Source: an uncultured Alphaproteobacteria bacterium
GTDB lineage: Bacteria > Pseudomonadota > Alphaproteobacteria > MPNO01 > DASWLB01
DNA: 64,000 bases
Reading direction: 5' to 3'
NCBI GenBank assembly: GCA_963775315.1
Contig: CAVZIN010000007.1
Location: 841,193-905,192 of the forward strand
Positions within the stretch are counted from its first letter, which is position 1; each line of letters opens with the position of its first letter. A program made the translations under genes and the position numbers. The notes beneath the pieces were generated by a model. The model was not told the origin of the DNA. It made no database searches and saw only the letters and a program-made list of their open reading frames with translations. Shown here one piece after another: positions 2,267 through 32,027 of the stretch.

Positions 2267-2287
2267 GGTTCGCGACCCCCATCCCCG

Positions 2288-4812: not shown

Positions 4813-4855
4813 GAAGGGCGAGGCCCGACGAAAAGAACCAGGGTTGCGGTAGAAC

Positions 4856-8881: not shown

Positions 8882-8897
8882 CACTCGGTCCTTTCGT

Positions 8898-9950
8898 TCA
8901 GGCCGCAGCCGTCGTGTCGCGTTCGTCGGGTGTGCCGGTCGTGCGCGCCTCGCGCTCGCCGTGCGCCGCAAGCAGCTTCATCAGCCGCTTGCGCATTTCG
9001 AGACCGGGCCGGTCGGACCACATGTGCAGCTCCTCGCGGCGGCGCAGATCGAGTGGCACGTCCCAGTCGCACGCCTCCAGGATGGCGCGGTCCTCGTGCG
9101 TCACCTGGCGGTCGAAGGCGATGACACCCTCGGCCGGCGCGTCCGCCTCGGTGTCGTTGCGCACCGCGAACTGGGTCAGGATCGAGCGGCGGTCGTCGAT
9201 CGGCGCGGTCAGGGTGATCAGGATGTGTACGAGCCCGTTCGGGTAGGTGATCTTCATCTTGCGGCTGAACGGCATCCACCACGTCTTTTCGTAGTTGCGG
9301 ACCGTCCGGTCGCCGGATTCGCGCAGGTTTCGCTTCTGGATGTCCGGGTTCTGCACCGGCACGATGGTCCGCATGACGAACCCGTCATCCGTGTCGGTGA
9401 TGCTCATCGGCTGCGGCTCGGGCTCCTCGATGATCCCGAACGACGCGCGGTGAACGAAGGAGAAGTGCGCGTTGTCGAATGAGTTCTCCATGATGCGGAG
9501 GCCTGGCGCATCCCACTCCTCCCAGAACTCGTGAAACTGCCGGAAGCCGGTCATGGCGGCCTCGGGCAGCGCCGGAATGTCGTACAGCGGTTCCTCCAGG
9601 GCGACCCAGACATAGCCGTAGCGCTCGGCGCAGTGGTAAGACTTGACCCGGGCGCCCGAGGGCACCGCGCCGTTCCGCGCCTGGGGCACCTTCACGCACA
9701 GCCCGTCCGGGCGGTAGGTCCAGCCGTGATAGCCGCAGACGATGTTCCCGTCTTCGCACCAGCCGTGGCTCAGCTTGGCGGTGCGGTGGCAGCAGCGGTC
9801 GGCCACGGCGGCGGGCGCGCCGTCCGGCCCATTCCACAGCACGATGTCCTCGCCCAGCAGGCGGAACGGCCGCGGCGCGTCGCCAAGCTCTGACATTGGC
9901 ATCAGCGCGTACCAGAACCGGCGAAAAACGGGCTGCTGCGTCACGAGCAT
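8898..9950 (-). CDS. Alpha-only Rieske non-heme iron oxygenase, paralog 2 (NdmA/NdmB-like)
   Basis: CCHRTAKLSHG...CGYHGWTY and ENSFDNAHFSFVH motifs, AGGAGG RBS before the ATG at 9950, and a sigma-54 promoter about 40 bp upstream. Confidence 0.85.
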   Translation of the reverse strand: MLVTQQPVFRRFWYALMPMSELGDAPRPFRLLGEDIVLWNGPDGAPAAVADRCCHRTAKLSHGWCEDGNIVCGYHGWTYRPDGLCVKVPQARNGAVPSGARVKSYHCAERYGYVWVALEEPLYDIPALPEAAMTGFRQFHEFWEEWDAPGLRIMENSFDNAHFSFVHRASFGIIEEPEPQPMSITDTDDGFVMRTIVPVQNPDIQKRNLRESGDRTVRNYEKTWWMPFSRKMKITYPNGLVHILITLTAPIDDRRSILTQFAVRNDTEADAPAEGVIAFDRQVTHEDRAILEACDWDVPLDLRRREELHMWSDRPGLEMRKRLMKLLAAHGEREARTTGTPDERDTTAAA

Positions 9951-9989
9951 GTGGCGATCCCTCCTGTGGCCGAGGCGTCGCCTCTTGCC

Positions 9990-10006
9990 TTGCAAGTTCC
10001 GTGCCA
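9990..10006 (-). promoter_or_regulatory. Sigma-54 (RpoN) promoter for the Rieske oxygenase operon
   Basis: Minus strand reads TGGCACGGAACTTGCAA, a GG-N10-GC match to TGGCACG-N4-TTGCW, about 40 nt upstream of the start at 9950. Confidence 0.7.
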
Positions 10007-10060
10007 CTCCGAAGCCGCCGTGTTTTCAGGCGTCCCGATCCACGGATCGGAGGCTGTTGC

Positions 10061-10984
10061 CTAGCCCGTGGGCAGCGCTGCCCGAAACGGATGCGTCCGC
10101 ATCCAATGTCGTGCGACGTCGACGCGGCGCGCGATCCATACGTCGCGATGGCCGAGTACGTGATCGAGGAAGCGCTCGACACCGGCGGCGCGCGCGGCAT
10201 GGCCGCTGACCCGGAGGTGGAGCGAGAGGGTCATCGCCCGCGGCCGCCGCGCCGACTCCCGGTACAGGACGTCGAACGCATCGGTCATGTAGGTGACGAA
10301 GTCGCTGGACGTGGCGAACCAGCCGCGGCCGTACTTGTTGTCGTTGTGACTGAAGGTGTGGGGCAGGACCAGGAACGGCTTGCCGCGATCGGTCGTCCAG
10401 AACGGCAGGTCGTCGGCGTAGGAGTTGCAGTCGTAGAGGAAGCCGCCCTCTTCGATCAGCAGCCGTCGGGTGTTGAGCGACGGCCCGTAGCGGCAATACC
10501 AGCCGAGGGGCCGTTCACCCATTGTGCGGGTGAGCGAGGCGACGGCGCCGACGATGTGGTCGCGCTCCGCCGCCTCGTCCATGTTGAACTGCTCGACCCA
10601 GCGCCAGCCGTGGCAGAGCACTTCCCACCCCGCCTCTCGGATCGCCTGGGCAGCGTCGGGATTGCGCTCGAGGGCGAGCGCCGCACCGCTTACCGTCACG
10701 GGCAAGTCGCGCTCACGGAACAGATCGTGCAGCCGCCAGAATCCGACCCGGCTTCCGTATTCGAACAGGGACTCGGCGGCGAGGTCGCGCCCCTTGACGC
10801 CGAGGTCCGGGGCGCCGGCGTCGGTCATCGTGGCCTCCGACCTGCCGTCGCCGTCGGGCACCGAGTACTCCGACCCCTCCTCGTAATTCAGCACCAGGTT
10901 GAACGCCATGCGGGCGCCGTTGGGCCAGCACGGGTCGGGCGGATTGCGCCCGTACCCGACCATGTCGCGCGGATAGTCGGTCAT
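10061..10984 (-). CDS. Divergent PuuE-type allantoinase / polysaccharide deacetylase-family cyclic-ureide hydrolase
   Basis: MTDYPRDMVGYGRNPPDP...NYEEG...FEYGSRVGFWRL resembles PuuE, but the active-site region differs from the canonical copy at 23390. ATGA overlap with the allA stop. Confidence 0.8.
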   Translation of the reverse strand: MTDYPRDMVGYGRNPPDPCWPNGARMAFNLVLNYEEGSEYSVPDGDGRSEATMTDAGAPDLGVKGRDLAAESLFEYGSRVGFWRLHDLFRERDLPVTVSGAALALERNPDAAQAIREAGWEVLCHGWRWVEQFNMDEAAERDHIVGAVASLTRTMGERPLGWYCRYGPSLNTRRLLIEEGGFLYDCNSYADDLPFWTTDRGKPFLVLPHTFSHNDNKYGRGWFATSSDFVTYMTDAFDVLYRESARRPRAMTLSLHLRVSGHAARAAGVERFLDHVLGHRDVWIARRVDVARHWMRTHPFRAALPTG

Positions 10985-11481
10985 GCGGCGATTTCCACGC
11001 GGAGCCCCAGCCGCCCTTTCAGGGCCGCCGACTGGTGGTCGGTCCGGTTGGTGTCGGCGAGCTCGAGATTGAGGAAGTCCATGCAGGGCGCACGGAAATA
11101 AGGGCCCGCATGCCAGGTGCCGCAGTGGAGCTTCACGATGGCGGGTCCGACGATGGTGAAGGCGCGGAGCGTGCCGGGTTCGGGCAGCGCCTGTGGGTCG
11201 TCGAACGCCGCGGGTGGCGCCACCGCGAGGAACCATTCGAGCCCGAGGGCCGATCCCAGGCACTGCGTCACCTTCCGGTGTCGCGCCAGTGCCTCGAAGG
11301 CCAACCCGTGGTCGGGCACGCGCATGATGTAGAGCCGCGGCGTGCCGCCGAATTCCAGCCGCGCGTCCTCCGGACCGAACGGCGTGCCGTAGCCGGAGGG
11401 CGCGATCAGCTCGCCGAATGGCGCAAACGCGGCGGCGGTGATCGGCTCGGGCCGGAGGCGGATCAGGCGAGGTTCGATCAT
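10981..11481 (-). CDS. allA: Ureidoglycolate lyase (AllA family)
   Basis: 166 aa with the AllA-family PFG motif (EPITAAAFAPFGELI), consistent size and ureide-pathway context. Confidence 0.8.
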   Translation of the reverse strand: MIEPRLIRLRPEPITAAAFAPFGELIAPSGYGTPFGPEDARLEFGGTPRLYIMRVPDHGLAFEALARHRKVTQCLGSALGLEWFLAVAPPAAFDDPQALPEPGTLRAFTIVGPAIVKLHCGTWHAGPYFRAPCMDFLNLELADTNRTDHQSAALKGRLGLRVEIAA

Positions 11482-12734
11482 GACACGCGGTCCTTTGCGC
11501 GTGCCATGGCGAGGGGTGTGTCGGTATAGAGGCGGCGCAGCTTCGCCCGGTGGTCAGGCCCGTCCCGTCCGGCCGTCGCGCGCACCGGATCGGCGCCTTG
11601 CAGCAACGGCGCGCTCGCATCCCACGAGAAGCGGCTGACGAAGGCGATACGCTCGGCGCGGGCGGCCTCGAACGCGGCGGTGAAGGCGGGGGCGTCGAAC
11701 CTGTGGGCCGCCGCCTCCGCGAAGGACGTGAGGAGCGCGCACCCGTCCTCGATCGCCTGGGTCGCGCCCTGGCCGAGCGTGGGCGCCATGGCATGGCTGG
11801 CGTCGCCGAGGAACAGCACATGGCCGCTTGTGTCGCGGTAGGCGGCGTCGATTTCCTGCGCGCGCGACCAGTGCAGCGGGCCCTCGCACCGGGCCAGCGC
11901 GTCGATCAGCCACGCGCAGCTCGGATCGGGAGCGCCGGCGTGGGGGCGGTAGGCGGCGCAGAGACGGTTCCGGTCGGCGCAGCCTTCCGGCACCTCGCCA
12001 TTCGCGTCGGTCGGCAGGTTGCCGGACAGGTAGACCACCCCGTCCGCCAGACGGAAGGCGAGCAGGCGGTTCGGCCCGGTGTAGAACTGCTCGAGATCGT
12101 CGATCCCGCTCGCGTCGGCGTCGGGCAGCAGCAGCCGGAAGTTGGCGACGCCGAGGAAGCGGGTCGCCGGAGTGCCGAGAAGCCGCTCGCGGAGGGGCGA
12201 GTAGCGCCCGTCGGCGGCGATCAGCAGGTCGATCCCTTCAATCCGCTTGCGCGCGCCGGTCACGTCGTCGATCAGGGTGAAGGAGATCGCCCCGCGTCGG
12301 CGCCCGGGCGTGATGGCGACGTCCTCGATGCGGGCGCGGAACCGCGCGAGCCGGCGCAGCGGCGCGCGGATGGCACGATAGAGCTCCGACCAGCGGATAC
12401 GGATGCCGTCCGTTTCCGCAACCTCTTCAAGCGGGATGAAATAGAGCAGGCGCCCGCCCGAGAGCGCGGCGCGCCATTGCCGCCATGGCAGGCTCGCCGC
12501 CTGCAGGTCCCGCGCGAGGGCGGGGAGGGTCGCCGCCAGAGCGCCCATCGCATTCGGTCCGACATTCAGCCCGTTGCCGGCATGGTCGTGGTCGTCCGGC
12601 CCGACCTTTTCGACCGCGATCAGCTCGACGTCCGGCCGTCCGGCGAGTCCTGCCGCGACCACGCCGCCGGCGACGCCGAGGCCGATCACGGCGACGCGCA
12701 GCGGCAGGCGCGCATTCACGCTGGCATTCGGCAT
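11478..12734 (-). CDS. FAD-dependent monooxygenase (HpxO/TmuM-like urate-type hydroxylase candidate)
   Basis: N-terminal GxGxxG (RVAVIGLGVAGG), DG and GD(A/S)xH flavin monooxygenase motifs, operon with allA and puuE-like, sigma-54 promoter upstream. Confidence 0.8.
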   Translation of the reverse strand: MPNASVNARLPLRVAVIGLGVAGGVVAAGLAGRPDVELIAVEKVGPDDHDHAGNGLNVGPNAMGALAATLPALARDLQAASLPWRQWRAALSGGRLLYFIPLEEVAETDGIRIRWSELYRAIRAPLRRLARFRARIEDVAITPGRRRGAISFTLIDDVTGARKRIEGIDLLIAADGRYSPLRERLLGTPATRFLGVANFRLLLPDADASGIDDLEQFYTGPNRLLAFRLADGVVYLSGNLPTDANGEVPEGCADRNRLCAAYRPHAGAPDPSCAWLIDALARCEGPLHWSRAQEIDAAYRDTSGHVLFLGDASHAMAPTLGQGATQAIEDGCALLTSFAEAAAHRFDAPAFTAAFEAARAERIAFVSRFSWDASAPLLQGADPVRATAGRDGPDHRAKLRRLYTDTPLAMARAKDRVS

Positions 12735-12768
12735 GCTGGCAAACCCTCGACCATCCCAGCGCGAGGGA

Positions 12769-12784
12769 TGCAAATTCCGTGCCA
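12769..12784 (-). promoter_or_regulatory. Sigma-54 promoter for the FAD monooxygenase-allA-puuE-like operon
   Basis: Minus strand reads TGGCACGGAATTTGCA, about 35 nt upstream of the start at 12734. Confidence 0.7.
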
Positions 12785-12912
12785 CGCGGGTTCGCCCGGA
12801 AACCGGGCGGCCGGCCGGCGCCCTGTGCCCAGTGTTCGGGCAGGCTGCATATTCGCGCGCCATCGCTGGCCGCGCGGAACGGCCTTCGGAACGGATTCCG
12901 CCCTGGAAACGG

Positions 12913-12930
12913 TTGGCACGATTCTTGCGA
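12913..12930 (+). promoter_or_regulatory. Sigma-54 promoter for the isochorismatase-cupin-CocE operon
   Basis: TGGCACGATTCTTGCGA. The 22-mer GGTTGGCACGATTCTTGCGAGG is identical to the promoter at 20156-20177 on the opposite strand. Confidence 0.75.
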
Positions 12931-12940
12931 GGTGTGCCGC

Positions 12941-13720
12941 ATGGATGCTCGCGAAGATACGAAGCGATCGTTGGGCACGGCGCCCGCGAACCGCTGGCGG
13001 GTGGACGCGGCGGAAGTCGATCTCGTCCGGGCCCAGCCGGTGCCTCGCCCGGTGCGGATCGCCGCGACGCCGCAGAACCTGACGCTCGACCTTGCGCGCA
13101 CGGCGATCCTGGTGATCGACATGCAGAACGATTTCTGCCACCCGGACGGGTGGCTTGCCTCGATCGGCGTCGACGTGTCGCCGCTGCGCGCCCCGATCGC
13201 CCCGCTCGCGGGGCTCCTGCCGGCACTGCGCCAGGCCGGGGTGCCGGTGGTGTGGGTCAATTGGGGCAACCGGCCGGACCGGCTCAACCTCAGCCCGTCC
13301 TTGCTGCACGTCTACAAGCCGACCGGCGAGGGCGTCGGGCTCGGCGATACTCTGGTCAGCGGTGCGCACGTTCTTCAGAAGGGAAGCTGGTCGGCCGCCA
13401 TCGTCGACGACCTCGCGCAAGAGCCCGTCGACATCCATGTCGACAAGTACCGGATGAGTGGATTTTGGGACACGCCGCTCGATTCCATCCTACGCAATCT
13501 AGGAGTGGCGACCTTGCTGTTCGCCGGCGTCAATGCCGACCAGTGCGTACTCTGCTCGCTTCAGGACGCGAACTTCCTGGGACACGATTGTGTCCTCCTC
13601 GAAGACTGCACCGGGACGAGCTCGCCGAAGTTCTGCTTGGAGGCGACGCTCTACAATGTGCGCCAGTGCTTCGGCTTCGTCGCGGGGTCCGGGGCCTTGG
13701 TCGCGGCGTTGGCAAGATGA
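12941..13720 (+). CDS. Isochorismatase-family cysteine hydrolase (RutB / N-carbamoylsarcosine amidase / maleamate amidase-like)
   Basis: LVIDMQNDFCHPDGW and a C-terminal block YRMSGFWDTPLDSILRNLGV...GVNADQCVL close to RutB. GAGGTG RBS and a sigma-54 promoter 10-30 bp upstream. Confidence 0.85.
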   Translation: MDAREDTKRSLGTAPANRWRVDAAEVDLVRAQPVPRPVRIAATPQNLTLDLARTAILVIDMQNDFCHPDGWLASIGVDVSPLRAPIAPLAGLLPALRQAGVPVVWVNWGNRPDRLNLSPSLLHVYKPTGEGVGLGDTLVSGAHVLQKGSWSAAIVDDLAQEPVDIHVDKYRMSGFWDTPLDSILRNLGVATLLFAGVNADQCVLCSLQDANFLGHDCVLLEDCTGTSSPKFCLEATLYNVRQCFGFVAGSGALVAALAR

Positions 13721-14160
13721 AGGCGATCCTCAAGCATCCCGGCGAGCTGCGCGCGTTTCGCATCAGCCCGGGCGACACCAACTACCTCGCCTGCGTGTTC
13801 GACCCGGTCGAGCACGGCGAGGTCGGCTTCACCGCGGTGATCGAAATCTTCGAGCAGGGCGGGAAGACGCCGCCCAATACCCACCGCGCGGCGCACGAGA
13901 TGTTCCTGGTGCTGGAGGGCGAGGGGATCGCGACCTGCGACGGCCGCGCCGAGAAGGTACGGACGGGCGATGTGCTGTTGGTCCGGCCCGGCGCCGAACA
14001 CGTGGTCGAGAACACCGGGCCGGGGCGGCTCTACTGCTTCACCGTCATGGTGCCGGACGAGGAATTCGCGGCGCTGATCCGGGGCGGCATCCCGGTCGCG
14101 CTAGACGCCGCCGACCTCGCCGTCATCACCCGCGCACCGGGCTTCGCGCCGCATGGCTGA
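13717..14160 (+). CDS. Cupin-domain protein
   Basis: 147 aa single cupin (G(X)5HxH-like THRAAHEMFLVLEGEG ... PGAEH) with ATGA coupling to the upstream gene. Confidence 0.7.
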   Translation: MKAILKHPGELRAFRISPGDTNYLACVFDPVEHGEVGFTAVIEIFEQGGKTPPNTHRAAHEMFLVLEGEGIATCDGRAEKVRTGDVLLVRPGAEHVVENTGPGRLYCFTVMVPDEEFAALIRGGIPVALDAADLAVITRAPGFAPHG

Positions 14161-15820
14161 CGGGAGTCCGGAAATTGTCTCCATGCGCACCCGCGACGGG
14201 GTGCGGCTTGACGCGGACGTCTATTTCCCGCCGGCGACACTGAAGGGCCCGCACCCGGTATTGATGATGCGCCAGCCCTATGGACGGCGCATTGCCTCGA
14301 CCGTGACCTTTGCCCACCCGTCCTGGTACGCGGCACACGGCTATATCGTGGTGATCCAGGACGTGCGCGGGCGCGGGACGTCGGAGGGCGTGTGGCGGGC
14401 CTTCGAGAACGAGGCGGCGGACGGGGCCGACGCGGTGCGCTGGGCTGCCACGCTGCCGGGGGTGAGCGGGGCCGTCGGCATGTACGGCTTTTCCTACCAG
14501 GGCGCGACGCAGCTCCTTGCTGCGGGCGGGCTCGCCGCGGAGGACGGAACGACCGGCGCGCTCAAGGCCATAGCCCCGGCGATGACCGGGTGGCGCATTC
14601 ACGACGACTGGGCCTATGAGGGTGGAGCGTTCGCGCTGGCCGCCAACGTGTCGTGGGGCCTCCAGACGGCCGCGGAGACCGCGCGGCTCGCCAGGGACGA
14701 GGAAGCGTTCGTGGCACTCGCCCGCGCCGCCGCCGCGCCGCCGCTGCGGGACGCCATTCCGGCGGTCCCGGACATATTGCGGCGCTACGCCAGCTACGCC
14801 CACTACATGGAGTGGGTGGGCAATCCCGGCAACGGCCCCTACTGGGACCGCATCGCGCCGGCCGCGCAGATGGGGCGCGCCGACCTTCCGGCGCTGCACG
14901 TCGGCGGCTGGTACGATTCGTTCCTCGCCGGCACGCTCGCCGCCTATCGCGAGCTCTCGGCGCGGGCTCGAAGCCCGCAGCATCTTGTCGTCGGCCCTTG
15001 GACCCATCTCGACTGGACGGGGCGGCATTCCGCCTACGACGCCGGCCCGGCGGGCGCAAACACGATCGACGCGCTGCAGCTCCGCTGGTTCGACCATTGG
15101 TTGAAGGGCGCGGCGAACTGGGACGCGGTCGAACGGCCGGTGCAGCTTTTCGACATGGGTGCCAACGTGTGGCGCGGGTTCGAGAGGTGGGACGCGGCGC
15201 CGTCGCACGCGCTGCACTTGGCGAGCGATGGGCGAGCGGCGCTGATGCCGTGCGCCGGCCGGCTCACGGACGTGGCGGGACCGCCCGGCGCGAACGTGGT
15301 GGTGCTCGACCCATGGCGACCGCCGCCGAGCCATGGCGGCCATGCGGCCCCGCCGGTCGGGCGGGTCGACCGCGCCGCCATCGACGACCGGCCCGACGTC
15401 TGCGCCTACACGACGGAGCCGCTCTCCGGGCCGCTGCGCCTCGCCGGGGCCGTCGCGGCGGAGCTCTGGGTGCAGGCCGACCAGTCGAGCTTCGATGTCT
15501 CCGCCGTGCTATCGGAGCTCCGCCCCGACGGCAAGGTGGTGAATTTGACCCAGGGCTATCGCCGCGTGGCGCCCGGCGAAGGGGCAGCGCCGCTCCGCGT
15601 CGAGATGCGCGGCACGGCGGCGACGATCCCGGCCGGAACCGCGCTCCGCCTCTCGCTCGCGCCGTCCTGCTTTCCGGCCTTCCCGGTGAACGGGGGCGAC
15701 GGCGCGCCGCCCGCGGTCGCACGGCGAATCGACCAGCGGATCGTGACGCTCACCATTCGCCACGGGTCCGGCACACCGTCGCGCCTGCTGCTCCCGATCG
15801 TCGCTGAGGGGTCCGCGTGA
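14153..15820 (+). CDS. CocE/NonD-family hydrolase (X-Pro dipeptidyl-peptidase S15-like alpha/beta hydrolase)
   Basis: 555 aa with the GxSYxG nucleophile elbow (MYGFSYQG) and a C-terminal beta-sandwich domain. Confidence 0.8.
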   Translation: MADGSPEIVSMRTRDGVRLDADVYFPPATLKGPHPVLMMRQPYGRRIASTVTFAHPSWYAAHGYIVVIQDVRGRGTSEGVWRAFENEAADGADAVRWAATLPGVSGAVGMYGFSYQGATQLLAAGGLAAEDGTTGALKAIAPAMTGWRIHDDWAYEGGAFALAANVSWGLQTAAETARLARDEEAFVALARAAAAPPLRDAIPAVPDILRRYASYAHYMEWVGNPGNGPYWDRIAPAAQMGRADLPALHVGGWYDSFLAGTLAAYRELSARARSPQHLVVGPWTHLDWTGRHSAYDAGPAGANTIDALQLRWFDHWLKGAANWDAVERPVQLFDMGANVWRGFERWDAAPSHALHLASDGRAALMPCAGRLTDVAGPPGANVVVLDPWRPPPSHGGHAAPPVGRVDRAAIDDRPDVCAYTTEPLSGPLRLAGAVAAELWVQADQSSFDVSAVLSELRPDGKVVNLTQGYRRVAPGEGAAPLRVEMRGTAATIPAGTALRLSLAPSCFPAFPVNGGDGAPPAVARRIDQRIVTLTIRHGSGTPSRLLLPIVAEGSA

Positions 15821-15823
15821 ACG

Positions 15824-20128: not shown

Positions 20129-20157
20129 CGCATCCCTTCCCGGTCCCGCCCCATCCC

Positions 20158-20177
20158 TCGCAAGAATCGTGCCAACC
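20158..20177 (-). promoter_or_regulatory. Sigma-54 promoter for the creatininase-ABC ATPase-deaminase-FAD oxidase operon
   Basis: Minus strand reads GGTTGGCACGATTCTTGCGA, about 30 nt upstream of the start at 20128. Confidence 0.75.
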
Positions 20178-20314
20178 GGCGGCGCTGCGGATTTGACGCG
20201 ATTTGCGCCGCAAGGCGCCGCGCGGCTGCACAGCGAATGCGCAGGCTGGTCACGCGATGGGCAACGCGGCCCCGTGAAACGTGCGAAGGGGCCCGCACGC
20301 GGCCGTTTTCGTCG

Positions 20315-20331
20315 TGGCACGGTTCTTGCGA
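20315..20331 (+). promoter_or_regulatory. Sigma-54 promoter for the Rieske-less oxygenase paralog
   Basis: TGGCACGGTTCTTGCGA, 30 nt upstream of the ATG at 20361. Confidence 0.7.
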
Positions 20332-20360
20332 CGCAAAGGCGGTCTACCAAGGGAGGAGCC

Positions 20361-21239: not shown

Positions 21240-21325
21240 GGCTGTTGACCAACGATTGATCGAACTTTGTCGGGAAGCGACGGACGCGAAGGCCGTTCGC
21301 GCCCGCCCGGTGGCATTCCCCGCCG

Positions 21326-21341
21326 TGGCACGAATCTTGCA
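21326..21341 (+). promoter_or_regulatory. Sigma-54 promoter for the SBP-permease-puuE-allC-uraD-puuD operon
   Basis: TGGCACGAATCTTGCA, about 47 nt upstream of the ATG at 21388. Confidence 0.7.
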
Positions 21342-21387
21342 TCGCCCCTTTCGGCCGTCCGCAACGTCGAACGATTGGAGATCAACG

Positions 21388-22449: not shown

Positions 22450-22456
22450 GAGAGTG

Positions 22457-23377: not shown

Positions 23378-23389
23378 CGGCCGCCGCCG

Positions 23390-24313: not shown

Positions 24314-25599
24314 CGGCTCGGGCCAAGCTTGCGCCCGCCGCCGGCTATCGTCGCGACGCCGAAACGGTGATGGCGCGGCTTGATGCGCTGGCCGCGTGTT
24401 CGGAGACCGAGACCGGTCTCACCCGCCGTTTCCTCACCCCCGCGCACCGCGCCGCCATCGATCTGGTCGCGGGCTGGATGGGCGCGGCCGGGATGACGAC
24501 GCGGCTCGATCCGATGGGGACGCTCATTGGGCGTCGCGAAGGGAAGCGGCCAAGCGCGCCCTGCCTGATGCTCGGCTCGCACATCGACACGGTCGTGGAC
24601 GCCGGGAAATACGACGGCGCGCTGGGGGTGATCGCCGCCATCGCTTGTGTCGCACGCTTCGCCGAAACCGGGTTCGCCCCCGACTTTGCGATCGAGGTGG
24701 TCGCGTTCGGCGACGAAGAGGGCTCGCGCTTCCCGATCACGCTGACATCGAGCCGCGCGCTCGCCGGCACGCTCGACCCCGGGGTCTTCGCCATCCGCGA
24801 TGCCGCCGGGACGAGCCTCGGCGAAGCCATGCGGTCCTTCCGGCTCGATCCGGAAGCGCACCGGGCGGCGGCGCGGCGGCGCGAGGACGTGCTGGCATAT
24901 ATCGAGCTGCATATCGAGCAGGGGCCTGTGCTGGAGGCGGAAAGCCTCCCGGTCGGGGTGGTGACTGCCATCGCGGGCCAATCGCGCTTCGAGGTCGCGA
25001 TCGAAGGTGTGGCCGGCCACGCCGGGACCGTGCCGATGGCACTCCGCCGGGACGCGCTGGCTGCGGCGGCCGAGTGCATCCTGGCGGCCGAGGATGAATG
25101 CCGCGCCCGCGCCGGGTCGGGCGCGGTCGGGACGGTCGGGCGCATCGCGGCGGCGCCCGGGGCCGTCAATGTGATTCCGGGCCGCGCGCAATTTGTCCTG
25201 GATGTGCGAGCGCCCGCCGATGCCGACCGGTCCGCGGCGGTCGACGCGCTGCGCGCCCGGTTCGAGGCGGTCGCCAAGCGCCGCGGCGTATGGCTGGAGA
25301 TGCGTGAGACTCATTCGGCGGCGTCGGTTGCCTGTGCGTCCGATTTGGCGGATTGCCTCGCCCAGGCCGTCGCGGCGGAGGGCGTGAAGGTGCGCCGCCT
25401 GCCCAGCGGGGCAGGGCACGACGCCATGGCCGTCGCGGCGCTTTGCGACGTGGCGATGCTGTTCGTCCGATGCCGCGGCGGGGTGAGTCATCATCCGGAC
25501 GAGCATGTCGAGATTACCGACGTCGCCGTCGCCCTCGCCGTGCTCGATCGCTTCGTGCGCGCCTTCGGAGCGGCAACCTGCCCAAGGTTCGGGCAGTGA
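24310..25599 (+). CDS. allC: Allantoate amidohydrolase-like M20/carbamoylase-family hydrolase
   Basis: Zn-binding blocks GSHIDTV, DEEGSRF and HAGTVPM. A GTG at 24310 is coupled to the puuE stop; an alternative ATG lies at 24370. Confidence 0.8.
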   Translation: MTARAKLAPAAGYRRDAETVMARLDALAACSETETGLTRRFLTPAHRAAIDLVAGWMGAAGMTTRLDPMGTLIGRREGKRPSAPCLMLGSHIDTVVDAGKYDGALGVIAAIACVARFAETGFAPDFAIEVVAFGDEEGSRFPITLTSSRALAGTLDPGVFAIRDAAGTSLGEAMRSFRLDPEAHRAAARRREDVLAYIELHIEQGPVLEAESLPVGVVTAIAGQSRFEVAIEGVAGHAGTVPMALRRDALAAAAECILAAEDECRARAGSGAVGTVGRIAAAPGAVNVIPGRAQFVLDVRAPADADRSAAVDALRARFEAVAKRRGVWLEMRETHSAASVACASDLADCLAQAVAAEGVKVRRLPSGAGHDAMAVAALCDVAMLFVRCRGGVSHHPDEHVEITDVAVALAVLDRFVRAFGAATCPRFGQ

Positions 25600-25701
25600 G
25601 GCCGGTTCTCCGCGCGCCAGGGCAGCGATTTCCACGCATTTCCGGTCGCCCATGCTTGGCACGCCGCTTGCAAGGCGAGGGACGGGACAAGGCGTGAGGC
25701 G

Positions 25702-26244
25702 ATGACGGTCCAGTTCCTGCTCGCTGAGCTCAACGCGATGCCGCGCGGCGATTTCGTTGCCGCGCTGGGCGAGGTGTTCGAGCATTCGCCCTGGGTCGCC
25801 GGCTGCGCCTGGGATGCGCGCCCATTTGAGAGTCGGACGGCACTGCACCGGGCGATGGTGGGCGCGGTGCGCGCGGCGGGACGCGAGCTGCAGGTCACGC
25901 TGGTCTGCGCCCATCCCGATCTTGCCGGGCGGCTCGCCCGCAAGCGCAAGCTGGGCGCGCATTCGGCGCAAGAGCAGGCCGCGGCAGGACTCGACAGCCT
26001 GACGGACGACGAGTTCGCGCGGTTCGAGAGGTTGAACGCGCTCTATCGCCGCTGCTTCGATTTCCCTTTCGTCATCTGCGTTCGCGATCACCACAAGTCC
26101 GCCATCCTCGAAGCGTTCGAGCGCCGCCTGTTCCACACGCCGGAGCACGAACTGGACGAGGCGCTGACCAACATCGCCCGCATTGCCGAGCTCCGCCTCG
26201 TCGGGCTGGTCGCTGATCCCCAACCCGAGAGAGCCGAGCCGTGA
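25702..26244 (+). CDS. uraD: OHCU decarboxylase (2-oxo-4-hydroxy-4-carboxy-5-ureidoimidazoline decarboxylase)
   Basis: 180 aa, AHPDLAG motif, in an operon between allC and puuD. Confidence 0.85.
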   Translation: MTVQFLLAELNAMPRGDFVAALGEVFEHSPWVAGCAWDARPFESRTALHRAMVGAVRAAGRELQVTLVCAHPDLAGRLARKRKLGAHSAQEQAAAGLDSLTDDEFARFERLNALYRRCFDFPFVICVRDHHKSAILEAFERRLFHTPEHELDEALTNIARIAELRLVGLVADPQPERAEP

Positions 26245-27449
26245 TGAATCCCGAAATCCACGAATGGCTGAGCCTCGCGCTGCGCTGGGCGCATATCGTG
26301 ACCGCGATGGCGTGGATCGGCGCGTCGTTCTATTTCATGTGGCTCGATTCCCACCTCGAGCCGCCGCGCCATCCGAAACCCGGCGTCGAGGGTGACCTGT
26401 GGATGGTTCACTCCGGCGGGTTCTACGAGGTGAACAAGATCCTGGTCGCGCCGCGGGATCTGCCGCCCCACCTGCACTGGTTCAAGTGGGAGGCCGCGTT
26501 CACCTGGATTAGCGGCATCTGCCTTTTGGCGGTGGTCTATTACCTAGGCTCGTCGGCCTTCCTGATCGACCCCGCCGTCGCCAATATCGAGCGGCACGAT
26601 GCGCTCGGAATCGCGTTGATCCTCTTCATCGTCGGCTGGTTCGTCTATGACGGGCTCTACATCTCGCCGTTGGCGAAGATGGGCCATCTCGCCGCCGCGA
26701 TCGGGTTCCTCCTGCTTTGCGGCGTCGCATACGGGTTGTTCCATATTTTCGCCGCGCGCGCGGCCTACATCCACGTCGGCGCGCTGATGGGCACCATCAT
26801 GGTGGCGAACGTGTGGGTGCGCATCATACCGGCCCAGCGCGCCCTGGTCGCCGCGACCAAGGCGGGCACGCGGCCCGACCCGACGCTCGGGCTCCGGGCC
26901 AAGCAGCGGTCGGTGCACAACAACTACATGACGCTGCCCGTCATCTTCGTGATGATGAGCTCCCACTACCCCGAGACGTACGGCAACAAGTACGGCTGGG
27001 CGATCCTGATCGGAATGTTCGTTGTGGGCGCGGTGGTCCGCCACTGGTTCAACCTGCGGAACGCGGGCCGCACCCATTGGTGGCCGGTACCGGTCTCGGT
27101 GGCCGGGGTGCTGCTGATCATGTACCTGACCATGCCGGCGCGCCCGACGATGGAAGCGATGGCGGCGACCGCGGGTCCGGCGGGGCACGTGCCGTTCGGC
27201 GAGGTGCGCGCAGTGTTCGAGCGGCGCTGCGTCGCCTGCCATTCGCGCCACCCGACCGACAGCGACTTCGTCGTGCCGCCCAAGAACATTGTCTTCGATT
27301 CCGCTGCGCATATCCGTGGCCACGCCGAGGACATCATGCGGACGGTCGTCGTCGCGAAGATCATGCCGCTCGGCAACGTCACCGGCATGACGCCGGCGGA
27401 GCGCGCGCTGCTCGGCCGATGGCTGGCCCAGGGCGCGCCGGTCAACTGA
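26241..27449 (+). CDS. puuD: Urate hydroxylase PuuD (membrane protein with a C-terminal cytochrome c)
   Basis: Multi-TM N-terminal region, C-terminal CVACHS heme-binding motif, and a start that overlaps the uraD stop. Confidence 0.85.
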   Translation: MMNPEIHEWLSLALRWAHIVTAMAWIGASFYFMWLDSHLEPPRHPKPGVEGDLWMVHSGGFYEVNKILVAPRDLPPHLHWFKWEAAFTWISGICLLAVVYYLGSSAFLIDPAVANIERHDALGIALILFIVGWFVYDGLYISPLAKMGHLAAAIGFLLLCGVAYGLFHIFAARAAYIHVGALMGTIMVANVWVRIIPAQRALVAATKAGTRPDPTLGLRAKQRSVHNNYMTLPVIFVMMSSHYPETYGNKYGWAILIGMFVVGAVVRHWFNLRNAGRTHWWPVPVSVAGVLLIMYLTMPARPTMEAMAATAGPAGHVPFGEVRAVFERRCVACHSRHPTDSDFVVPPKNIVFDSAAHIRGHAEDIMRTVVVAKIMPLGNVTGMTPAERALLGRWLAQGAPVN

Positions 27450-27456
27450 GATGCGG

Positions 27457-28701
27457 TCAGGAGCCCCCGAGCAGGTCGACGAGGGCGCGGGCCACGATCT
27501 CGGTCGCGGCCGCGAGGTCGGCGAGGCGCAAATTCTCGTCGGCGTTGTGTCCGTTGGCCTCGGCCAGGGTGCGGGGTCCGGCGCCATACAAAACCACGGG
27601 GATGCCGGCGGCGGCATAGTGGCGCGCGTCAGTGTAGAGCGGCGAGCCGACGACCGGAACCGGATGGCCCAGGAGCGGTGCGGCGTGGCGGGCGAGCGCC
27701 TCGGCCAGCCGCTCCCACCCCGGTCCCGGGGCGAGCGGCGCGGCGGCGAGTACGATTGCCGTCTCGACGGTGATGTCGGGATATTCGCTCGCAGCCTCGG
27801 CAACCAGCGCGCGCAGCTCGGCCTCGGCGTCGGATGGCGTCTCCTCGGGCACGATGCGCCGGTCGAGCCGGAAGCGCACCCGGTCGGGCACGACGTTGGC
27901 GGCGATGCCGCCGGAGATCGTCCCCACGTTCAATGTCGGCGCGGCGATCCCTGGGATGGCGGAGCATCGCTCCGCCAGCTTTGCGCGATGGGCGTAGAGG
28001 GCGGCGAGTACGCCGGTCGTGGCCTCCAGCGCATCGCGCCCGGCGGCGGGTTCCGCCGCGTGGGCCTGGCAGCCGGTGACCGTGACCTCGAGATGCAGGC
28101 AGCCATTGTGGGCGTTGACGATGGCGTGGCTGAACCCGGCGCAGATCGCGTAGTCGGGCCGTGCGAGTCCCTCGTCGAGCAGGAATTTCGGGCCGATCTG
28201 GCCCCCCGTCTCCTCGTCCCAGGTGAAGTGCAGCTCCACCGTGCCGCCGAGACGCGCGCCCCCTGCCGCGGCCTCGCGAAGCGCGAGCAGGGCGAAGGCG
28301 TAGGTCGCGAAGTCGGACTTGGAAACCGCGACGCCGCGCCCGTACATGCGCGCATCGCCGCCCACGCCGGCGATCTCCGCGCCGTAGGGGTCGTGGGTCC
28401 AGCCGAGCCCGGGCGGCACCACGTCGCCATGTGCGTTGAGGGCGAGGGTCGAGCCGTCGCCGAACCGGTGGCGAACGATCAGGTTGGTCGCGCTGATCAT
28501 GCCGGCCCGGCGCGCGCGCGCCTCCGGCACGGGGTACGCCGCGACCGGGAGGCCCAGCCCTTCCAGAAGGGTGCGCGCGACGTGGGCATGCGGTGCGCAG
28601 TCGCCCGGTGGGTTGTCGGAAGGCGCCCTGACCAGCGCCGCCAGAAAGGCGAGCTGCCGGTCGCGCTGACGTTCGAGGTAACGGGAAATCGCGTCGGTCA
28701 T
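27457..28701 (-). CDS. M20-family metallohydrolase (ArgE/DapE/carboxypeptidase G2-like)
   Basis: 414 aa with M20 metal-binding motifs (HGDVV, DEE), on the opposite strand. Confidence 0.85.
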   Translation of the reverse strand: MTDAISRYLERQRDRQLAFLAALVRAPSDNPPGDCAPHAHVARTLLEGLGLPVAAYPVPEARARRAGMISATNLIVRHRFGDGSTLALNAHGDVVPPGLGWTHDPYGAEIAGVGGDARMYGRGVAVSKSDFATYAFALLALREAAAGGARLGGTVELHFTWDEETGGQIGPKFLLDEGLARPDYAICAGFSHAIVNAHNGCLHLEVTVTGCQAHAAEPAAGRDALEATTGVLAALYAHRAKLAERCSAIPGIAAPTLNVGTISGGIAANVVPDRVRFRLDRRIVPEETPSDAEAELRALVAEAASEYPDITVETAIVLAAAPLAPGPGWERLAEALARHAAPLLGHPVPVVGSPLYTDARHYAAAGIPVVLYGAGPRTLAEANGHNADENLRLADLAAATEIVARALVDLLGGS

Positions 28702-28742
28702 CGGCGCGGCAGTCTATCCGAAGGAACGAGGTGAAACGAGCC

Positions 28743-29729
28743 ATGGCCACGCAAATCCGAACCACACAGACCGCGCACTTGCCGCTGATCGACATCGAGG
28801 GCCTCGTAAGCCCCGATCCCGCCCGCCGCCAGGCGGTCGGTGCCGCCATGCGCGCCGCCTGCATCGACAAGGGTTTCATGTACGTCACCGGCCATGGGGT
28901 GCCGGAGCGTCTGATGGACGAAACGTTCGCCCTGTCGCGGGACTTTTTCGCTCTGCCGCTTGGGACGAAGCAATCCTACGATGTGCGGAACGCCATCGCG
29001 CGCCGCGGCTATGCCGGCATCCGCACCCAGGCGTTCCAGCTGGGCCCCGCCGACCTCAAGGAAAGCTTCTTCTTCGGCGAGGAGCTGCCGCTCGACGAGC
29101 CGCGCGTGGTGCGCGGACTCTACGACCACGGCCCGAACCAGTGGCCGGCGGAGCTGCCGGCGTTCCAGCCGGTCATGTACGAATACTGGCGCCAGATGAT
29201 GGCGCTGAGCGAGCGGCTGCTGGTCAGGCTTGCGCTGTCGCTCGGCCTCCCTGAGCCGTTCTTCGACGGATTCAAGCGCGCCGCGATGTGCCCGGTGCGC
29301 CTGCTGCACTATCCGCCGCCTCAGGACGACAGCCCGCTTGGCGAGGTGAGCTTCGGTGCCCACACCGATTTCGGCGGCATGACCGTGCTTGCCCAGGACG
29401 CGGCCGGCGGGCTCCAGATCCAGGGCGAGGAGGGGGATTGGATCGACGCGACACCGGTGCCCGGCGCGTTCATCGTCAATCTCGGCGATTTCGTACAGCG
29501 TTGGACCAATGACCTCTATCGCTCAACTCTGCACCGAGTGGTGTCGAACGGCGGCGCACGCTACTCCATCGCGGCGTTCTACGACGGCAATCCGGAATAT
29601 CGCGTGGAGACGTTGCCGGGCTGCATCTCGCCGGGCGAGGCGGCGAAGTACCCGCCGACCACGATGATCGAGTATCTCGAGATGCGCGCAAGGAGGTCCC
29701 AGGTCGATTACGGCGAGCAGGCGTTTTGA
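28743..29729 (+). CDS. 2-oxoglutarate/Fe(II)-dependent dioxygenase (IPNS/ACC-oxidase-like family)
   Basis: 328 aa, HxD...H facial triad (HTDFG...H) and the RxS 2OG-binding motif. Confidence 0.8.
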   Translation: MATQIRTTQTAHLPLIDIEGLVSPDPARRQAVGAAMRAACIDKGFMYVTGHGVPERLMDETFALSRDFFALPLGTKQSYDVRNAIARRGYAGIRTQAFQLGPADLKESFFFGEELPLDEPRVVRGLYDHGPNQWPAELPAFQPVMYEYWRQMMALSERLLVRLALSLGLPEPFFDGFKRAAMCPVRLLHYPPPQDDSPLGEVSFGAHTDFGGMTVLAQDAAGGLQIQGEEGDWIDATPVPGAFIVNLGDFVQRWTNDLYRSTLHRVVSNGGARYSIAAFYDGNPEYRVETLPGCISPGEAAKYPPTTMIEYLEMRARRSQVDYGEQAF

Positions 29730-30244
29730 GCGCAGCACCGCCGGACATCAATGCGGAACTGCACGCCCAGCTGCATGCCTGCGGAGTGACGGTCGCCGCG
29801 TCGCTGCCGGACGACTGGATCGCGCCGCTGATCGGGCGGATCGCCTCTGATCCCGGGATGCGGCACGTTCCGGTGGCGCGCGAGGCCGAGGCGGTGGCGA
29901 TCTGCAGCGGCGCGTTCTTCGGCGGTGTGCGTTCCGCCGCGCTGATGGGCGCGACCGGCCTGCTCACCTGCACGGGCGAACTCGCGACGCTCAACCTGCG
30001 GCACGCGATTCCGGTGTTTCTGATCGTGAGCGCACGCGGTTCGATCGACGACCACCGGATCTACCAGGAGGTGCAGGGTCGCCGTACGCGGCCGCTGCTC
30101 GACATGTACGACTTCCCCTATCACGTGATCGAAAGTGCGGACCGGATCGGCGACATACCCGACTGCTACGAGACCTGCCGCCTCCAGAAGCGGCCCTTCG
30201 TGCTGTTCCTCGCGCGCCACCTGATGAAGGGGGACGTACGATGA
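29726..30244 (+). CDS. TPP-dependent decarboxylase alpha subunit (sulfopyruvate/phosphonopyruvate decarboxylase ComD-like)
   Basis: About 172 aa TPP-enzyme N-terminal (PYR) domain. The putative TTG start overlaps the dioxygenase stop; the exact start is uncertain. Confidence 0.7.
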   Translation: MSAAPPDINAELHAQLHACGVTVAASLPDDWIAPLIGRIASDPGMRHVPVAREAEAVAICSGAFFGGVRSAALMGATGLLTCTGELATLNLRHAIPVFLIVSARGSIDDHRIYQEVQGRRTRPLLDMYDFPYHVIESADRIGDIPDCYETCRLQKRPFVLFLARHLMKGDVR

Positions 30245-30843
30245 ATGCGCGCGAGGCTATCGAGGTTCTGGCGGCCCACCGCGGCGACGCCGTTGCCGTC
30301 TGCGCGCTCGGCATGGCGGCGAACGAATGGTGGGCGGTGACCGAGGGCGAGGATTCGTTCTACATGCATGGCGCCATGGGCTTCGCGGCGAGCTTCGCGC
30401 TCGGCCTCGCCCTTTCCCTGCCGCAGGCGACCGTCTGGCTGTTGAACGCGGACGGGTCTCTCTGCATGAATCTCGGCTGCCTTCTCACCGAAGCAGGACA
30501 GGCCGCGCCCAACCTCAAGCATTTCGTCATCGACAACGGCGTCTACCAGACGGTCGGCGCCGTTCCGATGGTCAATCGAGGTCGCACGGACTATGCCGCC
30601 ATCGCCCGCGGCGCCGGCTTTCCGCGCGCCCGCACCATCGAGGATATCGACACGCTTACTCGCGCGATGCCGGAGATCGCAACCGAGCGAGGCCCGACCT
30701 TCACCGCCGTCCGAGTCCCGCCCGAGACCGGCTTCCTGCGCACGCCGCCGATGACCTACGAAGGTCCGGAGATGAAGTACCGCTTCGGCCGTGCTCTTGA
30801 ACGCAAATTCGGCATCGACGTATTCGGGCCGCAGGGCTACTGA
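30241..30843 (+). CDS. TPP-dependent decarboxylase beta subunit (ComE-like, TPP-binding PP domain)
   Basis: 200 aa, GDG-x25-N TPP/Mg motif (NADGSLCMNLGCLLT...DNGVY), ATGA coupling. Confidence 0.75.
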   Translation: MNAREAIEVLAAHRGDAVAVCALGMAANEWWAVTEGEDSFYMHGAMGFAASFALGLALSLPQATVWLLNADGSLCMNLGCLLTEAGQAAPNLKHFVIDNGVYQTVGAVPMVNRGRTDYAAIARGAGFPRARTIEDIDTLTRAMPEIATERGPTFTAVRVPPETGFLRTPPMTYEGPEMKYRFGRALERKFGIDVFGPQGY

Positions 30844-30936
30844 TCGCTGCCGTTTTCGTGAGCGTTTGACCATCGATTGACCGGCACGCGCACCGCACCG
30901 GTCGCCGTCCCGCCCGTTCTCGCGCCAATCCTGCGC

Positions 30937-30953
30937 TGGCATGAATCTTGCAT
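30937..30953 (+). promoter_or_regulatory. Sigma-54 promoter for SBP paralog 2
   Basis: TGGCATGAATCTTGCAT, about 45 nt upstream of the ATG at 30996. Confidence 0.65.
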
Positions 30954-30995
30954 TGCAAGCTGCAAGACCCAACGGGTGGGAATTGGAGACAGACC

Positions 30996-32027
30996 ATGCT
31001 CGAGATGCTCAGGATCGGACGCCGCAGGTCGGCGCTCATGGCAGCGGCCGCCTTTGCCGCCGGAGTCCTCGTCGCGCACGAGGCGTCCGCCGACACGAAG
31101 GTGAGCTTCCTTACCTCGTGGAAGGCGCAGGCCGAGCATGGCGGCTACTATCAGGCGCTGGCGCTCGGATATTTCAAAAAGCATGGGCTCGACGTCAAGA
31201 TCCGCGAAGGCGGGCCGCAGCTCAACGGCACCCAGATGCTGGCCGGCGGCGCGGTCGATTTCGCCATGCTGTCGAACAACGATGACATCCTCCAGGCGGT
31301 CATCCATGGCGCGCATATGAAGGCGGTCATGGCCGGGTTCCAGAAGTCGCCGCAGATCCTGATGACCCACGAGGGCAACGGCATCGAAAAGCTGGAGGAC
31401 ATGAAGGGCAAGCCGATCCTTCTGGCGGCCGGCTCGGTCAACACCATGTTCGCCTGGCTCAAGGCCAAGTACGGCTTCATGGATTCGCAGATCCGCAAGT
31501 ACACCTTCAACATGGCGCCGTTCCTCGCCGACAAGAATTCGATCCAGCAAGGGTACCTGTCGAGCGAGCCGTTTATCGTGAAGAAGGAGGGCGGAATTAC
31601 TCCCAAGGTCTTCCTGCTCGCCGACCATGGCTACAACACCTACGCCTCGATCACCGCGACCTCTGACAAGATGATCGAGGAGCATCCCGAGGTGGTGCAG
31701 GCCTTCGTCGACGCCTCGATCGAGGGGCTCTACAGCTATCTCTATGGCGATCCGTCTCCGGCGAACGCGCTGATCAAGAAGGACAACCCGGAGATGACCG
31801 ACGATACGATCGCGTTCGGCATGGCAAAGCTCAAGGAGGCCGGTATCATCGACTCGGGCGACGCGCTGACGATGGGCATCGGCGCGATGACCGACGCGCG
31901 CTGGAAGAGCCAGTTCGCGTCTGCCGCTTCGGTCGGCGTCTATCCGAAGGATTTCGACTACAAGAAAGCCTACACGCTGCAGTTCGTCGACAAGGGCCAC
32001 GGTCTCGCGATGAAGCCGAAGATGTAG
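30996..32027 (+). CDS. ABC transporter substrate-binding protein (NMT1/TauA family), paralog 2
   Basis: Close paralog of the 21388 gene (shared blocks KVSFLTSWKAQAEHGGYYQA, NTMFAWLKAKYGF), with its own sigma-54 promoter. Confidence 0.9.
   Translation: MLEMLRIGRRRSALMAAAAFAAGVLVAHEASADTKVSFLTSWKAQAEHGGYYQALALGYFKKHGLDVKIREGGPQLNGTQMLAGGAVDFAMLSNNDDILQAVIHGAHMKAVMAGFQKSPQILMTHEGNGIEKLEDMKGKPILLAAGSVNTMFAWLKAKYGFMDSQIRKYTFNMAPFLADKNSIQQGYLSSEPFIVKKEGGITPKVFLLADHGYNTYASITATSDKMIEEHPEVVQAFVDASIEGLYSYLYGDPSPANALIKKDNPEMTDDTIAFGMAKLKEAGIIDSGDALTMGIGAMTDARWKSQFASAASVGVYPKDFDYKKAYTLQFVDKGHGLAMKPKM

Follow-up and report, generated by a model that had tools for sequence, protein, structure and literature searches.

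Transcription by the sigma-54 (RpoN) holoenzyme starts about 12 nucleotides (nt) downstream of the GC of its -24/-12 promoter, and the closed complex formed there needs an ATP-hydrolysing enhancer-binding protein to open. At glnAp2 the enhancer sites lie at -108 and -140, and many sigma-54 catabolic operons use specialised activators such as XylR, DmpR and PrpR. Here we compare the described systems with a 64,000-nt stretch of contig CAVZIN010000007.1 (hereafter the window), for which a sequence-only reading had proposed that a heterocycle catabolic island forms one RpoN-dependent, probably nitrogen-responsive regulon whose activator is encoded elsewhere.

The Klebsiella hpx and Escherichia coli all clusters have a pathway that overlaps that of the island (HpxO-like urate hydroxylase, allantoinase, allantoate amidohydrolase), but they are controlled by local regulators (HpxR, AllR/AllS) and indirectly by nitrogen through NAC, and are not known to have a sigma-54 promoter before every unit. 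The XylR/Pu, DmpR/Po and PrpR/prpBCDE systems are likewise sigma-54 catabolic operons with upstream activator sites; they have the activator gene beside the operon, whereas none is found in the window or in 80 related loci. The enterobacterial Ntr regulon (glnAp2, glnK-amtB, astCADBE, rutA-G) is similar in its -24/-12 promoters close to TGGCAC-N5-TTGC, in its 17-bp palindromic enhancers with TGC...GCA ends that are often paired, in having the activator gene far from most targets, and in targets that scavenge alternative nitrogen, including nucleobase rings (PMC8743547, PMC4987338). It differs in that the half-site is mainly TGCAC there and TGCCC here, the sites here are closer to the start (about -86 and -106), and here eight promoters stand within 21 kb, with two enhancers apparently common to divergent promoters. 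In Burkholderia cenocepacia H111, NtrC and sigma-54 co-regulate xanthine dehydrogenase (XDH), a urate oxidase cluster and allantoicases, and an ntrC mutant is impaired on allantoin (PMC5491218). That system belongs to a betaproteobacterium and is known from RNA-seq and phenotype, whereas the island is known by its promoter anatomy. The gene content differs too, since the island combines PuuD, PuuE and allantoate amidohydrolase with Rieske, creatininase-family and isochorismatase-like genes. The island shows no departure from known sigma-54 principles, and purine catabolism under NtrC and sigma-54 already has a documented case in Burkholderia (PMC5491218); what is distinctive is the promoter density, the two putative shared enhancers, the TGCCC half-site and the conserved gene block.

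We consider it likely, and the best of the available explanations, that the island is transcribed by sigma-54 holoenzyme activated in trans by NtrC under nitrogen limitation. Eight transcription units would each start at a near-consensus -24/-12 promoter. The gene for NtrC would lie elsewhere in the genome; the protein, phosphorylated when nitrogen is limiting, would recognise 17-bp dyads of the type TGC(C/A)C-N7-G(G/T)GCA, and two pairs of sites between divergent promoters would probably each serve both. The promoters at 21326 and 30937 probably involve an additional or different factor acting through TTGACC-N5-TTGAYC. The computational evidence below shows the motifs, where they lie, their recurrence in relatives and the company that the dyad keeps with Ntr-regulon genes; the RpoN dependence, the activator and the inducing signal are what we infer.

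Eight candidate sigma-54 promoters

The window, with a base composition of 68.6% G+C, was scanned for TGGCAC-N5-TTGC, with GG and GC required and up to 2 mismatches allowed. Seven exact matches were found, against 0.11 ± 0.31 in dinucleotide-preserving shuffles (maximum 1), and with one TGGCAT variant they make up eight candidate sigma-54 promoters (strand in brackets; distances from TTGC to the start codon):

9992-10006 (-): TGGCACGGAACTTGC, exact consensus; 41 nt before an ATG with AGGAGGG ahead of it
12770-12784 (-): TGGCACGGAATTTGC, exact consensus; 35 nt
12914-12928 (+): TGGCACGATTCTTGC, exact consensus; 12 nt
20160-20174 (-): TGGCACGATTCTTGC, exact consensus; 31 nt
20315-20329 (+): TGGCACGGTTCTTGC, exact consensus; 31 nt
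21326-21340 (+): TGGCACGAATCTTGC, exact consensus; 47 nt
25657-25671 (+): TGGCACGCCGCTTGC, exact consensus; 30 nt
30937-30951 (+): TGGCATGAATCTTGC, one mismatch, the common C-to-T variant; 44 nt

At these sites GG and GC are exactly 10 nt apart, as in -24/-12 promoters. The extended TGGCACG is present in 7/8 and TTGC(A/G) in 8/8, giving an extended consensus TGGCACG-N4-TTGC(A/G) that agrees with the published sigma-54 consensus TGGCACnnTTnTTGC (PMC8743547). The spacers vary from site to site while the consensus positions stay fixed, so the sites are not copies of one repeat.

Placement is equally ordered. All eight sites are intergenic and oriented toward the adjacent gene, whose start codon follows TTGC after 12-47 nt. 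Intergenic DNA amounts to only 2,779 bp of the window (summed over gaps of at least 40 bp), and the intergenic sites among the best matches (0-1 mismatch) are exactly these eight, all remaining matches of that quality lying within genes. From 9951 to 30995, all gaps of 100 bp or longer contain one site or a divergent pair; the only gap in this interval without a sigma-54 motif is the 41-bp one at 28702-28742. The sequence-only reading had listed seven TGGCAC-N5-TTGC sites, 25-50 nt upstream of operon starts. Its coordinates were right to within 1-3 nt and its distances roughly so, and six of its sites are exact; the seventh, at 30937, is the one-mismatch variant, and the site at 25657-25671 (+) had been overlooked. 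Extended consensus, intergenic position, orientation and the occurrence of the motif before homologues in distant relatives (below) support the view that all eight behave like sigma-54 promoters.

NtrC-type dyads upstream of six promoters

Taking the predicted start as 12 nt downstream of GC, we find a 17-bp TGC-N11-GCA dyad upstream of 6/8 window promoters:

10058-10074 and 10079-10095: tandem dyads TGCCTAGCCCGTGGGCA and TGCCCGAAACGGATGCG, with centres at about -86 and -107 relative to the start predicted for the 9992-10006 (-) promoter
12826-12862, between the 12770 (-) and 12914 (+) promoters: putative shared enhancer, with the perfect dyad TGCCCAGTGTTCGGGCA at 12826-12842 and the degenerate TGCATATTCGCGCGCCA at 12846-12862
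20227-20263, between the 20160 (-) and 20315 (+) promoters: putative shared enhancer, with TGCACAGCGAATGCGCA at 20227-20243 and TGGTCACGCGATGGGCA at 20247-20263
25579-25595: dyad TGCCCAAGGTTCGGGCA, ending 61 nt upstream of the 25657 promoter, in the 3' end of the preceding gene

The dyads thus form pairs 20-21 bp apart in three intergenic regions. Their centres lie at about -86 and -106/-107 for the 9992 (-), 12914 (+), 20160 (-) and 20315 (+) promoters and at -76 and -96 for 12770 (-), and 25657 (+) has just one dyad, at -96. The 20227-20263 pair stands exactly midway between the predicted starts of its two promoters, and each of the pairs at 12826-12862 and 20227-20263 is probably a bidirectional enhancer shared by both divergent promoters. 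Enhancer sites of sigma-54 promoters are expected about 70-150 bp from the start; here six of the eight promoters have dyads, and the other two have a different shared element.

Across 61 promoter-upstream regions of the window and its relatives TGC-N11-GCA occurs 29 times, against 4.6 ± 2.2 in random segments (about 6-fold). The commonest form is TGCC-N9-GGCA, present at 4/8 window promoters and in 10/61 regions overall against a background of about 0.2, and the NtrC core TGCAC-N7-GTGCA is found at no more than 1 mismatch 9 times against about 0.5. In the literature the NtrC site is given as a 17-bp palindrome, TGCACCAnnnTGGTGCA (PMC8743547, PMC4987338). With the enteric form, TGCACC-N5-GGTGCA and usually in two or more copies, the window dyads agree imperfectly: TGCACAGCGAATGCGCA matches 9/10 positions of the NtrC core and the TGCCC-N7-GGGCA variants 8/10. 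A NifA-dependent promoter type was considered and rejected, the NifA upstream sequence TGT-N10-ACA being absent from six promoter regions; the IHF consensus is absent from the six as well.

The promoters recur in distant relatives

Scanning the creatininase-family protein against one genome per species gave 80 loci at 50-66% identity and no closer relative; they are mostly from uncultured Alphaproteobacteria (Stellaceae, Tagaea, Rhodospirillales, Beijerinckiaceae). TGGCA(C/T)-N5-TTGC occurs at 53 sites in their 1.29 Mb, and most assignable sites sit 25-170 nt upstream of homologues of window genes, namely creatininase, isochorismatase, cupin, Rieske, binding-protein, 2-oxoglutarate (2OG)-oxygenase, flavin adenine dinucleotide (FAD)-oxidase, S15-hydrolase and XDH Fe-S genes. 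Of 75 creatininase homologues, 14 have a site in the 250 nt upstream when up to 1 mismatch is allowed, against 1.5 in random windows (maximum 7). Elsewhere the creatininase homologue is inside an operon whose first gene has the motif, as in locus L017, and the isochorismatase-unit homologues in L002, L021 and L006 are also preceded by sigma-54 motifs. By this comparison the gene set is predicted to be under sigma-54 control, without a local activator, across a broad group. Dyads of the TGCCC and TGCAC types precede the same gene families in the relatives and look like variants of one regulator's site.

In several relatives (L001 at 9922-9959, L021 at 6393-6444, L036, L037 and L038) the creatininase homologue and a divergent gene, which encodes an isochorismatase, cupin, Rieske or binding protein, have sigma-54 motifs back-to-back and 8-40 bp apart, so that each enhancer would lie inside or beyond the other unit. 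In L046, a Pseudacidovorax metagenome-assembled genome, motifs at 16710 and 10834 precede NirB-like nitrite reductase and aldehyde dehydrogenase genes, which is consistent with nitrogen-related sigma-54 control in related loci.

The dyad-promoter cassette precedes nitrogen genes in metagenomes

Metagenome contigs were scanned for the combined cassette TGCCC-N7-GGGCA-N30-60-TGGCACG-N4-TTGC, which matched at least 120 loci. Among the matches listed, the first downstream open reading frame (ORF) could be given a Pfam family in 101, comprising 24 P-II and 9 Amt proteins, 4 each of Peripla_BP_5 (UrtA-like, best E = 2.5e-161), Peripla_BP_6, SBP_bac_5 and MFS, and, among others, NMT1, NMT1_2 and nitrate/amino-acid-type binding proteins, one glutamine synthetase (GlnA) and a circularly permuted ATP-grasp protein. 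P-II and Amt proteins together account for 33% of these. By tblastn, P-II genes are present in about 30 of the 120 matches listed, usually directly downstream of the cassette. The glnK, amtB, urtA-like and glnA genes found behind it are classic NtrC targets. Together with the dyads upstream of the window promoters, this company supports the proposal of an RpoN-dependent, nitrogen-responsive regulon.

Distances from dyad to promoter in the matches listed are concentrated at 37-43, 48-54 and 60 nt and sparse in between, as they would be if the dyad had to lie on one particular face of the helix. In the window the spacings of 41, 51, 61 and 71 nt fit the same phasing of about 10 bp, and none of the cassette loci listed has nucleotide similarity to the window. 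In L086, L116 and L164 (also L114 and L173) the exact window dyad TGCCCAGTGTTCGGGCA stands 48-49 nt upstream of a sigma-54 promoter. Behind these cassettes, where room allows, lies a conserved ORF of 96 amino acids without an assigned family, which may encode an unannotated small Ntr-regulon protein.

The activator is not encoded nearby

The sequence-only reading had held that no GAFTGA-type AAA+ activator is encoded in these 64 kb, and motif, tblastn and Pfam searches all confirm it. No GAFTGA, ESELFGH or GTLFLDE-type motif was found in a six-frame search of the window. The two GSFTGA strings that did turn up in the window and related loci are inside amidohydrolases. The NtrC AAA+ central domain gave a best tblastn hit of only E = 0.5 in the window; the probe works, since it detects six genuine activators in the metagenome loci at E ≤ 1e-61. 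No Sigma54_activat domain was found by Pfam among the called genes of about 1-57.8 kb, which include the whole island (the genes at 57.8-64 kb were covered by the six-frame motif and tblastn searches), and the only regulators seen by Pfam, of the MarR and ArsR families, are outside the island. In the 80 related loci, searches for GAFTGA-type motifs and tblastn with the NtrC domain likewise revealed no enhancer-binding protein gene, so that the adjacent or divergent activator gene typical of XylR, DmpR and PrpR systems is missing from the window and from these loci alike. Under a trans-acting NtrC this absence is expected rather than puzzling: it fits a global regulator and is the expected state for NtrC-controlled scavenging genes.

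Possible promoter duplication and a second upstream element

Two promoters on opposite strands, those of the isochorismatase (12914) and creatininase (20160) units, share an identical 23-mer, CGGTTGGCACGATTCTTGCGAGG, which had been noticed earlier as a 22-mer and taken as a sign of promoter duplication. Interrupted by only one 1-nt gap, the alignment of the two regions extends upstream across both enhancer sites, and they are best seen as copies, or homogenised versions, of one enhancer-promoter cassette. In L001, L002 and L021 the isochorismatase and creatininase genes, or other members of their operons, lie next to each other and are transcribed divergently, with sigma-54 motifs back to back. 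In the window the two genes mark the outer limits of a convergent block (12941-20128), and an ancestral divergent pair may plausibly have been rearranged.

The duplication idea holds in part, for this pair and, at the level of alignable upstream regions, for the promoters of two NMT1-type binding proteins (21326 and 30937), which are paralogues with 69% identity. Upstream of the latter two is a further element:

21245-21260 (+): TTGACCAACGATTGAT, beginning 81 nt upstream of the start of the 21326 motif
30866-30881 (+): TTGACCATCGATTGAC, beginning 71 nt upstream of the start of the 30937 motif

The paralogous upstream regions align with a 10-nt gap between element and promoter, and these are their best-conserved blocks. 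In the 1.35 Mb of the window and the 80 loci together, TTGACC-N5-TTGAYC occurs only at 21245 and 30866, that is, nowhere in the relatives. It may be the target of a second factor or simply a remnant of the duplication.

Alternative explanations

An origin of the motifs by chance or as remnants of a repeated element, with no promoter function, is scarcely credible. Two pairs of sites do resemble duplicates, as a repeated element would predict, but the number of exact matches far exceeds the shuffled expectation, the spacers vary around fixed consensus positions, the sites are strictly intergenic and properly oriented, the motifs precede homologues in distant genomes, and phased enhancer dyads accompany them; placement and conservation effectively refute this explanation. 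The identity of the activator is a more delicate matter, and several points weigh against NtrC. The commonest window dyad, TGCCC-N7-GGGCA, deviates in each half-site from the enteric consensus, at the fourth position only, and the second sites of the tandem pairs are degenerate (7-8/10 positions). This dyad is not significantly enriched window-wide (7 against 4.2, at no more than 1 mismatch), so the argument from it rests on position, tandem arrangement and enrichment across loci, its significance within the window coming from placement only. The P-II enrichment behind the metagenome cassette could partly reflect sigma-54 promoters in general and not the dyad. In some Alphaproteobacteria (Caulobacter, Rhodobacterales), moreover, NtrC has no GAFTGA and does not cooperate with sigma-54 (PMC10274813). 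The promoters at 21326 and 30937, finally, have no convincing dyad (no TGC-N11-GCA).

These points leave room for a dedicated enhancer-binding protein, encoded elsewhere and sensing a substrate such as urate, allantoin or creatinine, that would read TGCCC-N7-GGGCA with no direct part for NtrC. The deviant fourth position, the many sigma-54 catabolic operons that do have specialised activators, and the enhancer-binding protein gene present in 6 of the 120 cassette matches listed all speak for it. We nevertheless think it unlikely: such activators normally adjoin their targets, and none does so in the 64 kb or the 80 related loci; among the matches listed the cassette stands mainly before the NtrC targets named above; and the presence of TGCCC and TGCAC dyads before the same families in relatives points to one regulator with a degenerate site. 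Mixed control is a more serious contender, although we would put it at less than even: NtrC would act at the six dyad promoters, and another TTGACC-binding factor (a second enhancer-binding, an architectural or a co-regulatory protein) at 21326 and 30937. In its favor are the absence of the dyad from these two promoters, the restriction of the element to them, its distances of 71 and 81 nt from them, which differ by one helical turn, and its conservation, alongside the promoter, in the paralogous alignment. Against this, the element may have persisted simply from a recent duplication, it is missing before the relatives' binding-protein homologues, several of which have NtrC-like dyads instead, and a degenerate CTGCC half-site just upstream is also common to both regions. 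On balance, activation by NtrC in trans remains our preferred reading of the island.

Gene content and transcription units

Genes were called from codon usage and third-position G+C, and families were assigned from Pfam and NCBIfam. Eight transcription units are predicted, spanning 7638-27449 plus 30996-32027 (listed by promoter; coordinates in the direction of transcription):

9992-10006 (-), families from Pfam: Rieske2 9950-8898 and Rieske1 8881-7856 (VanA-type oxygenases), ORF of 73 amino acids 7859-7638
12770-12784 (-), families from Pfam/NCBIfam: HpxO-like FAD monooxygenase 12734-11478, ureidoglycolate lyase-like 11481-10981, PuuE-like deacetylase 10984-10061
12914-12928 (+): RutB/BiuH-like isochorismatase hydrolase 12941-13720, cupin 13717-14160, CocE/NonD hydrolase 14183-15820
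20160-20174 (-): creatininase family 20128-19295, ATP-binding cassette (ABC) ATPase 19304-18513, cytosine-deaminase-like amidohydrolase 18516-17200, FAD-linked oxidase 17203-15824
20315-20329 (+): Rieske3 paralogue 20361-21239
21326-21340 (+): NMT1-type binding protein 21388-22449, permease 22478-23377, PuuE allantoinase 23390-24313, allantoate amidohydrolase 24310-25599
25657-25671 (+): 2-oxo-4-hydroxy-4-carboxy-5-ureidoimidazoline (OHCU) decarboxylase 25702-26244, PuuD-type urate oxidase 26241-27449
30937-30951 (+): second NMT1-type binding protein 30996-32027

The cytosine-deaminase-like amidohydrolase, the PuuE allantoinase at 23390-24313 and the allantoate amidohydrolase score above the NCBIfam cut-off. 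Judged by its gene families, the 24-kb cluster at 7.6-32 kb can be described as a nitrogen-scavenging catabolic island for uric acid and related nitrogen-rich ring compounds, and heterocycle/ureide catabolic island is an equally fair name for it. The gene set includes steps from urate toward ureidoglycolate, amidohydrolases and ABC uptake, which are alternative-nitrogen functions of the kind that NtrC regulons target; in all there are two PuuE-type allantoinases and three VanA-type Rieske oxygenase paralogues.

Two further units within the same stretch, an ArgE/DapE-type M20 hydrolase (27457-28701, minus strand) and an operon of a 2OG-oxygenase and a split thiamine pyrophosphate (TPP)-decarboxylase (28743-30843, plus strand), are divergent and 41 bp apart. 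The window scan found no sigma-54 motif for either, and since their shared gap (28702-28742) has none, they must use another promoter type. Rfam found no riboswitch or structured RNA over the island.

Two genes have unusual features. Rieske3 (20361-21239) is 56% identical to its paralogue at 8898-9950 and has lost about 55 residues by deletion, the CxH...CxxH 2Fe-2S ligands among them; its product is predicted to be a Rieske-less oxygenase-domain protein, still with a sigma-54 promoter of its own. For the isochorismatase-like gene the best start is the ATG at 12941, 12 nt past the -12 TTGC, and homologues align from residue 8-11, in support of this start. With the ATG so near TTGC, a sigma-54 transcript would be essentially leaderless, and the apparent Shine-Dalgarno sequence GAGG at 12929-12932 would fall upstream of the start; an alternative start codon is the TTG at 12971.

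Our literature search found no paper on a pathway for the creatininase/isochorismatase/Rieske block. As a tentative and rather doubtful proposal, the block of creatininase, RutB/BiuH-like, cupin, CocE/NonD, FAD-oxidase, cytosine-deaminase-like and Rieske genes, which recurs with sigma-54 promoters in many uncultured Alphaproteobacteria, might encode an uncharacterised pathway for methylated or ring nitrogen (creatinine, N-methylhydantoin, methylated ureides) wired to NtrC by bidirectional shared enhancers, with TTGACC-N5-TTGAYC marking a second sigma-54 co-activator.

Flanking genes

The flanking genes have no TGGCAC-N5-TTGC-type motifs in the window scan. On the left are the genes of an XDH-type three-subunit molybdoenzyme (1787-5830) and aconitase/isopropylmalate-isomerase-like large and small subunits (5859-7618); the 202-bp gap upstream of the XDH-type genes contains an AT-rich stretch at about 1678-1712 and no sigma-54 motif. 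On the right are esterase, Old Yellow Enzyme (OYE) and MarR genes and then pcm-tolC-DUF2497-valS, an order typical of alphaproteobacterial chromosomes. The 426-bp gap before pcm-tolC-DUF2497-valS holds two minus-strand tRNA genes (43214-43286 and 43351-43421), the only structured RNAs that Rfam finds in the window. The valyl-tRNA synthetase gene (46693-49360) is split into two overlapping frames near 47938, inside the conserved ...ISRQLWWGH|RIPAWY... segment; the break has the look of a 1-nt indel and is probably an error of sequencing or assembly in an essential gene.

Implications

The analysis yields a precise regulatory map of a purine and N-heterocycle island, with eight candidate promoters, their putative enhancer sites and eight units, from a little-studied and probably alphaproteobacterial lineage. 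Current understanding of sigma-54 regulation is left unchanged by it. The map flags a conserved creatininase/isochorismatase/Rieske-type gene block as probably nitrogen-regulated, and it suggests that TGCCC-N7-GGGCA at phased distances before sigma-54 promoters may be a useful signature of Ntr regulons in environmental bacteria. For the organism itself the prediction is that the whole island would respond to nitrogen starvation through RpoN and NtrC.

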